64,000 bases of DNA from Octopus sinensis. Its lineage: Eukaryota. Below the pieces are notes generated by a model, which was not told the origin of the DNA, made no database searches, and was given only the letters and a program-made list of their open reading frames with translations. Made by a program: the position numbers and the translations under genes. Of this stretch, positions 10,991-63,670 are shown piece by piece (positions within the stretch are counted from its first letter, which is position 1; each line of letters begins with the position of its first letter). The stretch is taken from the NCBI RefSeq assembly GCF_006345805.1, contig NC_042998.1:33170001-33234000 (forward strand), in the 5' to 3' direction.

Positions 10991-11124
10991 TTGTTTCATT
11001 AAATTTCTGATTCAGCATTAAGGTGTTCAACATGAAGTCGTAATATTAATAATTTATAAGGCGGTGAGCTGGCAGAAACGTTAGCACGCCGGGCGAAATG
11101 CTTAGCGATTTTGTTACTTGTGAT

Positions 11125-12180
11125 TTCATCCTTTCGGGGGTGATAAATTGTGTACCAGTTGAACACTGGGATCGATGTGAAAATTTGAAACCATATTAAT
11201 AATCTACCTTGCGCTGAATATATACATTAATATATATTTCTTTATTGCCCACAAGGGGCTAAACATAGAGGTAACAAACAAGGACAGCTTAAGAGATTAA
11301 GTCAATTACATCGACCCCAGTGCGAAACTGGTACCTTATTTATCGACCCCGAAAGGATGAAAAGCAAAGTCGACCTCGGCGGAATTTGAAGTCAGAACGT
11401 AACGGCAGACTGAGTTCAAATTCCGCCGAGGTCGACTTTGCCTTTCATCCTTTCGGGGATGATAAATTGTGTACCAGTTGAACTCAGGGATCGATGTGAA
11501 AATTTGAAACCATATTAATAATCTACCTTGCGCTGAATATATACATTAATATATTTCTTATTGCCCACAAGGGGCTAAACATAGAGGTGACAAACAAGGA
11601 CAGCCAAGAGATTAAGTCAATTACATCGACCCCAGTGCGAAACTGGTACTTTATTTATCGACCCCGAAAGGATGAAGGCAAAGTCGACCTCGGCGGAATT
11701 TGAAGTCAGAACGTAACGGCAGACTGAGTTCAAATTCCGCCGAGGTCGACTTTGCCTTTCATCCTTTCGGGGATGATAAATTGTGTACCAGTTGAACTCA
11801 GGGATCGATGTGAAAATTTGAAACCATATTAATAATCTACCTTGCGCTGAATATATACATTAATATATATTTCTTTATTGCCCACAAGGGGCTAAACATA
11901 GAGGTGACAAACAAGGACAGCCAAAGAGATTAAGTCAATTACATCGACCCCAGTGCGAAACTGGTACTTTATTTATCGACCCCGAAAGGATGAAAGGCAA
12001 AGTCGACCTCGGCGGAATTTGAAGTCAGAACGTAACGGCAGACTGAGTTCAAATTCCGCCGAGGTCGACTTTGCCTTTCATCCTTTCGGGGATGATAAAT
12101 TGTGTACCAGTTGAACTCAGGGATCGATGTGAAAATCTGAAACCATATTAATAATCTACTTTGCGCTGAATATATACAGT
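11125..12180. repeat. About 3.3 tandem units of roughly 317 bp, each containing oppositely oriented SINE-A fragments
   Basis: GATAAATTGTGTACCAG recurs at about 11143, 11461, 11776 and 12094. Confidence 0.9.
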
Positions 12181-16821: not shown

Positions 16822-17063
16822 TTAATAATAATAATAAACAAGCATATAAGTAGCCAATCAGTAGGCATTAGAAATGTTTGAAATAACAGTTAAATCTTCA
16901 TCAAACCAAACCTTTATCGTTATTTACATTTGATGGATATTTGTCCTCATCTTGTTTATTGTTAACACAACGTTTCGGCTGATATACCCTCCAGCCTTCA
17001 TCACGTGTCTTGGGGAAATCTCGAACCTGGATTCTCATTCCGAAGGTATTTTTCGATGTTGTT

Positions 17064-17100
<37 letters not shown>

Positions 17101-17103
<3 letters not shown>

Positions 17104-17172
17104 TCACTGCCTGGAATCGAACTCGGAATCTTAGGGTTAGTAGCCTGCGCTCTTAGCCACTACGCCATATGC
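17101..17172 (-). ncRNA. tRNA-derived Pol III head (not a functional tRNA)
   Basis: Reverse complement has A box TGGCGTAGTGG, anticodon-like arm GGCTACTAACC and B box GAGTTCGATTCC. A partial second copy is at about 32338-32395 (+). Confidence 0.75.
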
Positions 17173-17180
17173 CCATGGGC

Positions 17181-17227
<47 letters not shown>

Positions 17228-17301
17228 GTAATAATAATAATAATAATAACAACATCGAAAAATACCTTAGGAATGAGAACCCAGGTTCGAAATTTTCCCA
17301 A

Positions 17302-17347
17302 GACACCTGATGAAGGCTGGAGAGTATATCAGCCGAAACGTTGTGTT
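17302..17347 (+). ncRNA. Minimal type I hammerhead ribozyme
   Basis: GACAC-CTGATGA-A-GGCTG-loop-CAGCC-GAAAC-GTT-GTGTT with palindrome AACGTT. The inverted copy at about 16964-17009 has a C3G change. Confidence 0.88.
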
Positions 17348-17538
17348 AACAACAAACAAGATGAGGACAAATATCCGTCGAATGTAAATAATGTAAATAA
17401 TTCCTCATCTCTTAAATATAGAACTGCTTTATTTTTATTTGTTTCGAACAGCGCACTTAGGCGGTTCCAGAATATAGCATTCTTTTTTCTTTTCTATACA
17501 TGTGTGTATGTGTCTGTGTGTCTGTGTGTCTGTGTGTG

Positions 17539-17879: not shown

Positions 17880-18088
17880 ATTCAAAATCTGACCGCGTGT
17901 GTACCGTTGGCGATTTTTTTTTCTCTGTCTTCCTTTCTCTGGATCTTTCCTCTTTCTATGTTTCCGACGAAGAGCTCCGCTCGAAACGTTAAACCCTCCA
18001 TCTTTCCTTCTTTCCTGAGCGTCCAATAATACTATATTTGTTCCACGTCCTCGCGTTGTTGTGTTTTTTTGTGCTTTCATGTTTGGAT

Positions 18089-18092
<4 letters not shown>
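17880..18092 (+). mobile_element. pLTR-like hammerhead-containing element in (TA)n
   Basis: Homologous to the reverse complement of 41381-41585, and both copies are flanked by (TA)n. Confidence 0.75.
17960..17994 (+). ncRNA. Minimal hammerhead ribozyme (U4C core)
   Basis: GTTT-CCGACGA-A-GAGC-TCC-GCTC-GAAAC-GTT-AAAC. Confidence 0.82.
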
Positions 18093-18656: not shown

Positions 18657-19100
18657 ATATACACAAAGAGGAGACCTTTGTCAGGACACTTTACATGCTA
18701 AAATGCCCGGTTAAAACCTAAACCGCGAAAAAAAAAAAGAAGTCATAAGGCACGCCGATTATAATACTAGAACAAAGTAACAAAACATGAATTAGTTAAT
18801 ACCGGACTCGAGTTTCGTCATAAATTCTAAATAAACTAATTTGTGATGTGTGGCTCATCAGCGAGATCGCTAATTAATGAATAATTATGAAGTTGCAAAT
18901 ACGTATCGAAAACATGTGGTTTAGGTTTTAACTGGCCTTTTTAGCATGTAAGTAATCCTTTTAGAGGCCTCCTGTTTGTGTATAGAAATATTCTATCCAC
19001 TTTTATATTTTTAAAAATATGTTATATCATATGACTTTTGTTTATGTGTGCTAATAACTGGTAATTAGATTAATTTCTTACCCTCATATTTACAGTAGTA
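18657..19100. mobile_element. Fold-back pLTR-like element with hammerhead in the inverted segment
   Basis: Arms about 18657-18730 and 18915-18984, followed by a tail that ends in (TA)n. Confidence 0.75.
18799..18867 (-). ncRNA. Hammerhead ribozyme, canonical core, extended stem II
   Basis: Reverse complement: ATCTCG-CTGATGAG...TCACAAATT/AATTTATGA-C-GAAAC-TCGA-GTC-CGGTAT, palindrome ACTCGAGT, GUC site. Confidence 0.8.
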
Positions 19101-20425: not shown

Positions 20426-20788
20426 TTATTTCATCGAATTAGCCATAAAGGCTTTACATAGAGGGGACACTACAACACATGTGGGGACATATAACGTTAT
20501 GTCTGTGGAATGCTCAGCCACTTGCACGTTAATTTCACAAGCAGGCTGCCACTTACTGTGTACCTACTTTTGCACTCCGCCTTTATATGTACATTTGTAT
20601 AGATGCTCTCGGCGTAATTTTCAACTGTTTTTATGAAGTGTTTTTAAGTATCATCGTGTTTGTTTGTGCATATGTTTTTCATTAAAATTTCTTAAACTAC
20701 GTTTTTTCAAGTCGTAAATTTCTAAACAAATATTGTATTCAAGTTGTATATAACGAAATAATTATCCTTCAGATAGTAGTACTGATCT

Positions 20789-21203
20789 AAGGCAGCGAGC
20801 TGGCAGAAACGTTAGCGCGCCCGGCGAAATGCGTAGCCGTATTTCGTTCGCCGTTACGTTCTAATTTCAAATTCTGCCGAGGTCGAATTTGCCTTTCATC
20901 CTTTCGGGGTCGATAAATTAAGTACCAGTTACGCACTGGGGTAGATATAATCGACTTAATCCGTTTGTCTGTCCTTGTTTGTCTCCTATGTGTTTAGTCC
21001 TTTGTGGGTAGTAAAGAAATAGGTATTTCGTCTGCCGTTACGTTCTGAGATCAGATTCCACCGAGGTCGACTTTGCCTTCCATCCTTTCGGGGTCGATTA
21101 AATAAGTACCAGTTTCGCACTGGGGTCGATGTAATCGACTTAATCCGTTTGTCTGTCTTTGTTTGTCCCCTCTATGTTTATCCCCTTGTGGGCAGCAAAG
21201 AAA
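20789..21203 (+). mobile_element. SINE-A dimer
   Basis: Family A consensus with AAAGAAATA-GGTATTTCGTC junction. Confidence 0.88.
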
Positions 21204-31981: not shown

Positions 31982-33086
31982 GTATTGGAATTTTTCTGAT
32001 TTTTCAGATTTTTTTATATCCTAGGCTACTGGTTTTAAATTGATATTAATTAAATTGATATTCAATTTATCTCCCTCATTATTTAATGTGTATATATAAT
32101 ATATATATATATATATAATTATATATATATATACACATATATATACTACTGCTGCTGCTACAACGGTACTCCGTCGGTTACGACGATGAGGGTTCCAGTT
32201 GACCCGATGAACGGAAGAAGTTGTTCGTGAAATTAATGTGCAAGTGGCTGAGTACTCCACAGACACGTGTACCTTTAACGTAGTTCTCGAGGAAATTCAG
32301 CGTGACGCAGAGTGTGACAAGACTGGCCCTTTGAAATATATGCCCGGGAGACATATGGCGTAGTGTTTAAGAGCGCGGGCTACTAACCCCAAAATTACGT
32401 ATCGATAGATTTCCTGACCACTGACCAAACTATTGCCATTGTACATCCCACCAGCAACACTATATTCTAAATATCCGGTAATCTAGTAGATTCTACTAGA
32501 CACTATATTTATTTCCTAGTAGTGTTATATTTTTGAACTTATGCTGAGGATAATCCTCTATATATATATATATAATTTGGACCTATTTACGATCCCACTA
32601 TATTTGGTTGATTTAGACAAACACTACAAAGGGAAAATTATGATTCTTTTTCGCAAATGGTTTACAGGGTAAAAGTTTTGGAACCGATGCAATTAACTAT
32701 AATCCTCAATTTTTCTCAGTTTGAAACAAAAACAATGAGATGTGCTTGGACAAAAGCCATTAAAGAAATCCCTCAACTACCACGGGGGTTACGTTCCAGA
32801 ACACCCGCGATAGGTGAAAATCCGCGAAGCAAAAACAATCCTGTACTCTTTTACTCTTTTAATTGTTTCAGACATGTGACTGCGGCCATGTTGGAGCACC
32901 ACCTTTAGTCGAATAAATCGGCCCCAGGAATTATTCTTTGTAAGCCTAGTACTTATTCTATCGGACTCTTTTTACCCGAACCGCAAAGTGACGGGGACTC
33001 TAGCATCAGTTGTCAAACGTTGGTGGGAGGACAGATACTGACACAAACGACAAACGCATACATATATATATAGATACACACACAAC

Positions 33087-41380: not shown

Positions 41381-41585
41381 TAGTTAATCAAACAAGAAAG
41401 CACAAAAAAAACACCACAACGCGAGGACGTGGAACAAATATATTATTATTGGACGCTCAGGAAAGAAGGGAGAAGAGGATTTAACGTTTCGACGGCTCTT
41501 CGTCGGAAACCTAGGAGAAGGAAAGATCCAGAGAAGGGAAGACATGGGTGAAAAAAATCGCCAAAATCGGTCCACACGATTCACA
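41381..41585 (-). mobile_element. Second copy of the 17880-18092 element with an eroded hammerhead (41480-41510)
   Basis: Reverse complement GTTTCCGACGAAGAGCCGTCGAAACGTTAAA and the same tail. Confidence 0.75.
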
Positions 41586-41595
41586 GGGGTGTGTG

Positions 41596-41629
<34 letters not shown>

Positions 41630-61124: not shown

Positions 61125-61511
61125 GGCGTGCTAACGATTCTGCCAGCTCGCCGCCTTGTGACTGCAGACTAAATAAATAACATGTACATGCCCACCTCAA
61201 ATAAAAAGAAAATCGGTCACGTGCTCACTTCTTAGGGTGGCGAAGTTCATTTTGTGCAATAAATCGCTTATATTTTTACAATGCAAAAAGTATTTTAAGC
61301 AATTTTTTTATACAATTCCTAAAAATGCTTAATTGAAGAAATACTATAGGATATTTTTTTAAACATGTAACGGTTATGGGGGTTAGCCCAAGAAAAGTAA
61401 GAATCGAAGAGGTTCATAAGGTAAAAATGGACGAGAACCACTGGTTTACATTTAGCGAGAATAGAAGAAACCAATTTCGCTAAATTTTTAGGTGGAATAT
61501 ACACAGATTTA

Positions 61512-61927
61512 GGGCGGCGAGCTGGCAGAATCGTTAGCACGCAGGGCGAAATGCTTAGCAGTATTTTGTCTTCCATTACGTTCTGAGTTCAAATTCCGCC
61601 GAGGTCGATTTTGCCTTTCATACTTTCGGGGTCGATTAAATAAGTACCAGTTACGCACTGGGGTCGATGTAATCGACTAAATCCCTTTGCCTGTCCTTGT
61701 TTGTCCTCTCTGTGTTTAGCCCCTTGTGGGTAGTAAAGAAATAGGTATTTCGTCTGCCGCTACGTTCTGAGTTCAAATTCCGCCGAGGTTGATATTGCCT
61801 GTCATCCTTTCAGGGTCGATTAAATAAGTACCAGTTACGCACTGGGGTCGATATAATCGACTAAATCCCTTTGTCTGTCCTTGTTTGTCCCCTCTATGTT
61901 TAGCCCCTTGTGGGCAATAAAGAAATA
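61512..61927 (+). mobile_element. SINE-A dimer with TSD
   Basis: AATATACACAGAT duplicated on both sides. Confidence 0.88.
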
Positions 61928-63041: not shown

Positions 63042-63598
63042 ATACGTATAGCCAAATTTTAGAGGATGCAATTAGTATGTTAACACAAGTTAACATGAAG
63101 GTCCTATACAGATCACAAGTAAGACATACAAAGAAAATAATAGCAGAAAATAAATAGATAGGAAAATGTTTTAATAGATCCCAGATATTGTGACTGTTAA
63201 AGCAAGGTATGAATCCGATAAAATTAATCGAGATAAAAATAACGCTGTAAAAGCATTAACGTTACGCTTGACCTTAAATATATGCAATATATATGCACAA
63301 GAGAGTAAATTGCCTTAAGGGAGAAAAAAGGCAAAGAATAACCTTTGAGAGTGACACGGTTGAACATAATTATGATGATGGCAAAGGGTAGTTTAGCATT
63401 TAACGGATTGTACTTATTGTTTTGGTTATTCACTAAAAGAATTTTCATTCATTAACTGCAGATCAAAACTATGGTAGATATACAATCTTAAAAGTTAATA
63501 AAGATACAGAAATAATTTATTCTCACACGCTTGATAATACTAATACAATAGCATTAACAGGATAAACTATCCATATATTGCAGAAAAATTCGTTAACG

Positions 63599-63670
63599 GC
63601 CAGCCATGAGACTCAAACTCACATCTCTGTGATTACGCGTCAAATGCTTTACCTTTAAGCTAAACTGCCC
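63599..63670 (-). pseudogene. tRNA-like sequence (Thr-CGT-like), degenerate
   Basis: Reverse complement GGGCAGTTTAGCTTAAAGGTAAAGC..TGACGCGTAATCA..GTGAGTTTGAGTCTCA. D, anticodon and T arms are visible, but the B box and acceptor stem are imperfect. Confidence 0.5.

Follow-up and report, generated by a model that had tools for sequence, protein, structure and literature searches.

Is the fold-back repeat at positions 16920..17428 of the stretch analysed here a mobile parasite of a retrotransposon, or is it a part of the retrotransposon itself? The stretch, called the window below, is 64,000 nucleotides of Octopus sinensis DNA (RefSeq assembly GCF_006345805.1, contig NC_042998.1, positions 33,170,001 to 33,234,000 of the forward strand). 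The original prediction was that the repeat is a tRNA-headed short interspersed element (SINE), whose RNA polymerase III (Pol III) transcript is processed by its own hammerhead ribozyme and integrated by the reverse transcriptase (RT) and GIY-YIG nuclease of a Penelope-like element (PLE). All the parts that it named in the region 16920..17428 are found in their places: a tRNA-like head, an (AAT)n tract, a hammerhead, and an inverted right arm with an intact ribozyme core and a tail. Using searches of the whole genome, we have shown that the head, the (AAT)n tract and the hammerhead part are the pseudo-long terminal repeat (pLTR) of an autonomous PLE with one open reading frame (ORF) for RT and GIY-YIG nuclease. 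The fold-back in the window is a usual PLE insertion.

The genome searched comprises 2.72 Gb. The body, which carries the hammerhead, and the head were used as separate queries and gave 2006 and 2457 first-look candidates, respectively. For each query 40 candidates were scored and 30 fetched, and the window's own locus is excluded from the counts that follow. The head adjoins the body in 25 of the 29 loci selected by the body. Of the 29 loci selected by the head, 27 contain the body, and order and strand are the same in both sets. Head and hammerhead body are one family and not a chance match, and the genome-wide check proposed for their co-occurrence came out in its favour. In one locus (L010), the body continues directly into an open frame, and three others (L019, L022, L025) have the end of a nuclease-like frame right before the head. 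Searches with the two ends of the ORF gave 2940 and 469 candidates. The head stands directly 3' of the ORF end in 27 of the 29 loci picked by the ORF end alone (L063-L091, of which L064 and L065 seem to be a single place in duplicate). Among the loci picked by the ORF start, the body lies directly 5' of the ORF in 19 of 29; an autonomous PLE does share the 3' part. The pLTR is found at both ORF ends in L122, L134 and other loci, and in L122 and L134 the head itself is seen at both ends. The full element has the order head-(AAT)n-body-ORF-head-(AAT)n-body, and its second head starts 33 nt past the point where the ORF stop codon begins.

The majority sequence of the element is 2605 nt long. The majority of 68 segments gives a single frame of 833 codons, or about 835 amino acids with the ATG at window position 17273, and the hammerhead and the tail fall within its first 52 codons. 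Copies of the ORF have 89-95% identity with the majority (5-11% diverged). When four pieces of real copies were scanned with Pfam, RVT_1 scored in one of them (E 1.9e-6, under the cut-off), and the other three gave no match. One copy (L286) is 68% identical to a relative protein, P0001, which carries PF00078, PF28514 and PF26215; P0001 belongs to a set of relatives, P0001-P0004, with 56-63% identity. The C-terminal part of the ORF we take to be a GIY-YIG nuclease from its motif; Pfam gave no GIY-YIG hit. A search of the PDB gave no sequence match. Two protein searches of the genome returned the same PLE family, which was confirmed for 30 loci of one search. Relatives from metagenomes are distant (64 loci, best segments 23-56% identity), and none of the five with a long enough RT frame has a pair of A and B boxes downstream. 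A zinc-finger linker motif between RT and nuclease is absent by eye from this family and present in a Neptune-like PLE family used as a control. By every feature testable here the element is a nuclease-bearing PLE, and membership of the Penelope/Poseidon clade is likely. One further locus (L061:945-2420) is a chimera of the ORF start of this family and the RT of the Neptune-like one.

In the window, the left arm runs on the minus strand from the tRNA-derived head through (AAT)n to the body with the hammerhead. The head occupies 17101..17174 (minus strand, +1 to +74, with +1 at 17174) and contains the A box TGGCGTAGTGG at 17157-17167 and the B-box-like GAGTTCGATTCC at 17113-17124. It is followed on the same strand by the (AAT)n spacer (17062..17099), whose length varies among copies, and by the short arm (16920..17061), a pLTR body that reaches body nt ~142 and has no tail. 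The right arm lies on the plus strand and consists of an (AAT)n spacer (17185..17249) and the long pLTR body (17250..17426). Its part 17250-17391 matches the left arm in 135 of 144 positions. Beyond this, it goes on for another 35 nt, to 17426; this extension (17392..17426, plus strand), seen on one arm only when the arms are compared, is the PLE 'tail'. The right arm had been described as free of the tRNA part. Most of the head is indeed gone from it, but its first 8 nt are kept, and the head is missing only after +8. The two arms meet in an 18-nt palindrome (17167..17184), which is formed because the element itself has GCCC-AC-GGGC at -6 to +4, where the 5' end of its RNA would lie. From the ATG at 17273, the frame of the right arm is open and corresponds to the 5' end of the PLE ORF. 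The second GGTTCGA box listed in the original prediction (17284-17290) is coding sequence of this ORF and has no CC as a B box would, so that it is not supported as a second B box. The right arm has also acquired one TTTT. The element is flanked on the plus strand by a likely target-site duplication at 16912..16925 and 17427..17440, with 12 of 14 bases equal by eye (a script allowing one mismatch scored only 8); the final bases of the left copy overlap the element end. The second copy of the head expected near 32338 was found by sequence match as a separate fragment without a body (32337..32399, plus strand), of which 32352-32399 matches the head at 87.5% over 48 nt.

The right hammerhead (17302..17347, plus strand) is at the same time protein-coding. 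It contains CTGATGA at 17307-17313, stem II at 17315-17334 and GAAAC-GTT at 17335-17342, and the cut is predicted at 17342/17343. Stem I has 5 bp, an extra A precedes stem II, and a palindromic AACGTT replaces stem III, as in the features of minimal type I hammerheads listed in PMC4209133. By sequence, a minimal type I hammerhead with a palindromic stem III is present in the pLTR. In the left copy (16964..17009, minus strand), C3 is changed to G, a change that abolishes cleavage in an anole PLE (PMC11167929), and this copy is predicted to be inactive. Among the arms of the body-selected loci, 17 of 43 have an intact core. Rfam gave no match on the window hammerhead 17302-17347 or on the head; the hammerhead was recognized by motif match, and the head by motif match and alignment to host tRNAs. 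Does the ribozyme shape the inserted copies, as the original prediction supposed? We mapped 5' ends in 108 loci not picked by the head, after 9 duplicates had been dropped. Only 2 of 32 body-internal 5' ends (beyond nt 30) lie at nt 92-96, the cut site, and the distribution over 15-nt bins is flat. The ribozyme does not set the 5' ends of inserted copies, and this explanation of the ends was ruled out.

Other hammerheads lie nearby in the window. A second, T-rich family with a minimal hammerhead is inserted in (TA)n at 17890-18090 (plus strand) and 41399-41614 (minus strand). It has 1851 candidates genome-wide. As a trial control, 30 of its loci were examined, and none yielded an ORF. An inverted-repeat element at 18658-18945 contains a Rfam Hammerhead_1 match at 18799-18867 (minus strand) with 33.2 bits, just under the cut-off of 34.

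Many copies consist of the pLTR only and begin at the head, as an independent SINE would: 57 of 113 loci have no ORF end, and 56 have one (L065, L310, L311 and L313 were removed from this comparison as duplicates). However, the two sets agree at 250 of the 251 majority positions of head and body, and the single differing position is a CpG site favoured by the query. Thus, there is no separate SINE lineage in the sampled loci. An independent tRNA-headed SINE that its own ribozyme cuts and that a PLE mobilises in trans is improbable and largely refuted. Solo pLTRs could still serve as masters, but the head belongs to the autonomous element, an outcome that the original prediction had itself named as contrary to its claim, and the flat distribution of body-internal 5' ends speaks against self-cutting as well. 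The idea that the neighbourhood is peculiar to this locus, with a SINE inserted here into the (AAT)n of a fold-back repeat, has next to no chance of being right. Other elements do enter this tract (L009, L029, L048), but head and body are linked with constant order and strand in 25 of 29 body-selected and 27 of 29 head-selected loci, which refutes a chance neighbourhood.

In the three loci just named, the 3' ends of a long interspersed element (LINE) lie directly against the pLTR's (AAT)n, so that head and body are split from each other. This LINE, with a restriction-like nuclease, is presumably Dong/R4-like. A headless ancestral subfamily was considered for L069, L089, L102, L124 and L137, which have no head; their breakpoints all differ, and they are read as deletions. 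These loci yielded no headless ancestor of the PLE family.

How are the copies inserted? The pattern was surveyed in 87 loci, 44 of which have an inverted pair. One long and one short arm make up 42 of these pairs, and two short arms the other 2. The long ends form a cluster at body nt 174-177, with nt 177 accounting for 35 of 88 ends, and the short ends fall mostly at body nt 140-153. A flanking direct repeat of at least 11 nt is present in 27 of the 44 pairs against 1.1% of shuffled pairings (median 11.5). Target duplications of about 12 bp accompany the copies; the original prediction had asked whether LINE-type ones are lacking, and an absence of target duplications was rejected. The short-arm end sits in the loop of a predicted stem-loop (17359..17410, plus strand), which folding and end mapping make a likely start structure for reverse transcription; the segment 17340-17428 has a z of -2.4, and 6 of 200 shuffles were as good. 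An inverted partner and a one-sided tail belong to the PLE pattern (PMC8557442). For the anole PLE, two internal RT start sites and the use of uncleaved RNA as a substrate are described, and no difference between the target strands was seen in vitro (PMC11167929). Our pairs suggest that each target strand uses a different RT start. The long and short pairs (42 of 44) with their ~12-bp duplications are genomic support for the two-primer model of PLE insertion, which was left open in vitro. In the part that ascribes the insertion to PLE machinery, the original prediction is upheld by these pairs, the tail and the target duplications.

Six loci (L035, L037, L042, L046, L055, L060) have a second arm with just 20-30 nt of head, copied from the palindrome onward before a jump; this suggests that the cDNA end primed itself by folding back. 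At its centre the palindrome has AC, GT or AT, and these two bases do not tell repair from CpG decay.

Where does the RNA of the element start? The head was aligned with 11 host tRNA genes (loci L142-L170), and the best of them was Arg-TCT (49 of 77 columns, z 7.3). The octopus SINEs OR1 and OR2 are said to have an Arg origin. Of the arms in the 29 body-selected loci, 18 extend as far as head +5; 11 of these stop within about -8 to +5, and 7 continue to the ORF side. Even at a generous stop rate of 0.23, the probability of 11 stops in 18 is 6e-4. Most of the stopping arms join flank or body and not a second head; the stop is therefore not accounted for by two heads that pair. The full-length copies L027, L122, L123 and L134 also begin at the head start. 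From the 5' ends to the A box, which starts 8 nt into the head, the distance is 3-16 nt, the spacing of RNA 5' ends known for tRNA-type promoters. We infer that the 5' pile-up marks an RNA 5' end at the head start. The proposal that a Pol III RNA starts at the head is plausible on these grounds. Elsewhere in the window, at 63598-63669 (minus strand), there is a decayed tRNA-like sequence with 31.4 bits for the Rfam tRNA model, not called by ARAGORN.

Runs of four T (T4), the terminators of Pol III, were also counted. The 2605-nt majority contains none, and it contains 29 runs of four A. The expected number of T4 is 2.9 under a codon shuffle (P 0.025), 5.0 under a third-position model (P 0.005), 2.6 under a Markov model (P 0.08) and 1.9 under a run-length model (P 0.14). 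The density is 0.36 per kb over 53 kb of copies compared to 2.8 per kb over 24 kb of the Neptune-like control family, whose majority has 5 T4 in 1488 nt. Five distant PLE ORFs in 2 clusters have 37 T4 in 5.6 kb (59 of the 64 distant loci have no long RT frame). The result is no more than suggestive.

We put a probability of about 0.65 on the following reading: the PLE pLTR became a Pol III promoter giving SINE-like short RNAs, and the PLE protein cuts the target, primes two cDNAs and joins them. Pol III would start at about -8 to +5 of each pLTR, whether this stands alone or closes a full copy at its 3' end, and the resulting short RNA would already contain the start sites of PLE reverse transcription. 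The GIY-YIG nuclease would cut the target with a stagger of ~12 nt. With uncleaved RNA as the template, each DNA end would then prime a cDNA, the first at body nt ~145-152 and the second at nt 177, and the two cDNAs would join at their 3' ends, in the window via the GCCC-NN-GGGC palindrome. Short copies could spread in this way like a SINE while being the terminal repeat of an autonomous element. The head would most likely go back to a SINE of tRNA origin that ended in (AAT)n and was captured in the 3' UTR (untranslated region).

Several observations weigh against a Pol III origin of the RNA. The loci are the top BLAST hits and not a random sample, and no whole ORF was found among the copies examined. 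The tRNA source of the head is not separated, with Ala-TGC second-best at z 6.9 among the few isotypes tested, and ARAGORN and Rfam left the head, whose cloverleaf is decayed, without a score. The 5' pile-up coincides with the small palindrome and suits a Pol II start equally well. The absence of T4 is weak alone and not significant in two of the four models; runs of four G are likewise absent from the majority, and the RT part of the Neptune-like control has only 1 T4 in 1104 nt. RNA was checked in two raw runs of another organism label, of which ~6% was read. Reads were equal on both strands, and 70-75% of them ran on into unlike sequence; there was no start pile-up at the head or the ribozyme, and no Pol III transcript of the element was seen in these two runs. 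On one locus (L141), these two RNA runs, one contig set guessed to be RNA and one untyped contig set all show a depth that falls from the 3' to the 5' end of the ORF, with no strand bias and no start pile-up. The RNA reads neither support nor refute a Pol III RNA.

Both RNA runs also show a 45-nt GT..AG skip at L141:3080-3126, on the strand opposite to the element, which is likely to be splicing of a host transcript through a copy.

Two further accounts of the transcript have to be weighed. The element may be an ordinary PLE with an internal Pol II promoter, carrying the tRNA-like piece as a mere passenger that was once a SINE in the 3' UTR. The short copies would then come from the long RNA by 5' truncation at the Pol II start or at the palindrome. 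The ORF requires a translatable RNA, 7 of 18 arms pass through the head into the ORF, and the lack of T4 is not significant in half of the models, all of which suit this account. Penelope of D. virilis provides a precedent, with an internal TATA-less promoter in the pLTR, described as LINE-like with an alignment to Inr/DPE (initiator and downstream promoter element) and with an intron (PMC2377424). Against the account stand the position of the A box 8 nt into the head and the 3-16 nt between the 5' ends and this box, as in tRNA-type promoters, and a whole unit without T4 contrasts with the 5 and 37 T4 of the control PLE ORFs. We regard it as unlikely, yet as the main rival. To our knowledge, PLE promoters are known from very few elements. 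The other account goes further than the favoured pLTR promoter: an autonomous retrotransposon would be read end to end by Pol III, the captured tRNA promoter giving a ~2.9-kb RNA, cleared of T-run terminators, whose translation would proceed with no normal cap. This is possible, and we advance it as a tentative idea.

How does the octopus family compare with known systems? It resembles the Penelope/Poseidon-type PLEs (anole PAc, PMC11167929; D. virilis Penelope, PMC2377424; PMC8557442) in its pLTRs and in the one ORF for RT and C-terminal GIY-YIG nuclease. Shared as well are the inverted 5'-truncated partner, the tail at one end, the target duplications and the minimal hammerhead overlapping the ORF start. 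In contrast to them, the octopus pLTR opens with a tRNA-derived A/B-box head and (AAT)n, and the sense strand has no T4. TRIMp3 elements (Cassandra, Helenus and Ajax) also have a small-RNA-derived Pol III promoter in the terminal repeat, with SINE insertion proposed as its source (PMC10886601); in the octopus family the promoter function is a probable one. Unlike the octopus element, whose head is in a coding element, TRIMp3 are non-coding LTR (long terminal repeat) elements up to about 1.3 kb, whose autonomous partners must use Pol II (PMC10886601). They have a primer binding site, a polypurine tract and duplications of 4-5 bp, compared to duplications of ~12 bp here, where the first two were not searched for.

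The SINE-like Sm-alpha repeats of schistosomes (PMC6765202) have a type I hammerhead preceded by a Pol III-type promoter, as the octopus pLTR is likely to have, and animal non-LTR retrozymes share the derivation from PLE pLTRs (bioRxiv 10.64898/2026.07.22.740005); the available part of this preprint mentions neither tRNA nor Pol III. Both are non-coding head-to-tail repeats freed by ribozyme cleavage, whereas the octopus units are solo or head-to-head, shared with an ORF and not cut at the ribozyme, and no head-to-tail arrays of whole units were found in 58 mapped loci. The octopus OR1 and OR2 of Ohshima and Okada 1994 are tRNA-derived CORE SINEs (PMC4824008, PMC4758252). They have a tRNA-derived head like the PLE pLTR and in addition a CORE domain, a likeness drawn from their description and not from their sequence. 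With tRNA-derived SINEs in general, the pLTR shares a head with A and B boxes (its cloverleaf is decayed), but the unit is the partner's own pLTR and not a distinct non-autonomous family. Its (AAT)n is internal and its 3' ends lie in the ORF start, with no simple-repeat or poly(A) 3' tail. The PLE families listed in the accessible part of PMC13282606 include none with a tRNA-headed pLTR. In the literature, with Repbase, Dfam and SINEBase outside the comparison, we found no PLE with such a pLTR.

The window contains other repeats as well. A very abundant dispersed repeat lies at 1517-1822, 20775-21080, 61497-61802 and about 25 more places; it has no match to the PLE head or body and is likely to represent known octopus SINEs. 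At 11124-12085, three fold-back units of this repeat stand in tandem with a spacing of ~315 nt. Window-wide repeat finding was dominated by microsatellites.

A coding PLE with a tRNA-type promoter as its terminal repeat would, if confirmed, break the rule that Pol III serves short non-coding retroelements only, a restriction stated for the partners of LTR elements (PMC10886601). A SINE-like or retrozyme-like parasite could then bud directly from a pLTR. If the element were even read by Pol III from end to end, each pLTR left behind would be a ready-made SINE, and one family would be both LINE and SINE. In repeat libraries, the pLTR-only copies of this octopus family are likely to be filed as 'SINEs'.
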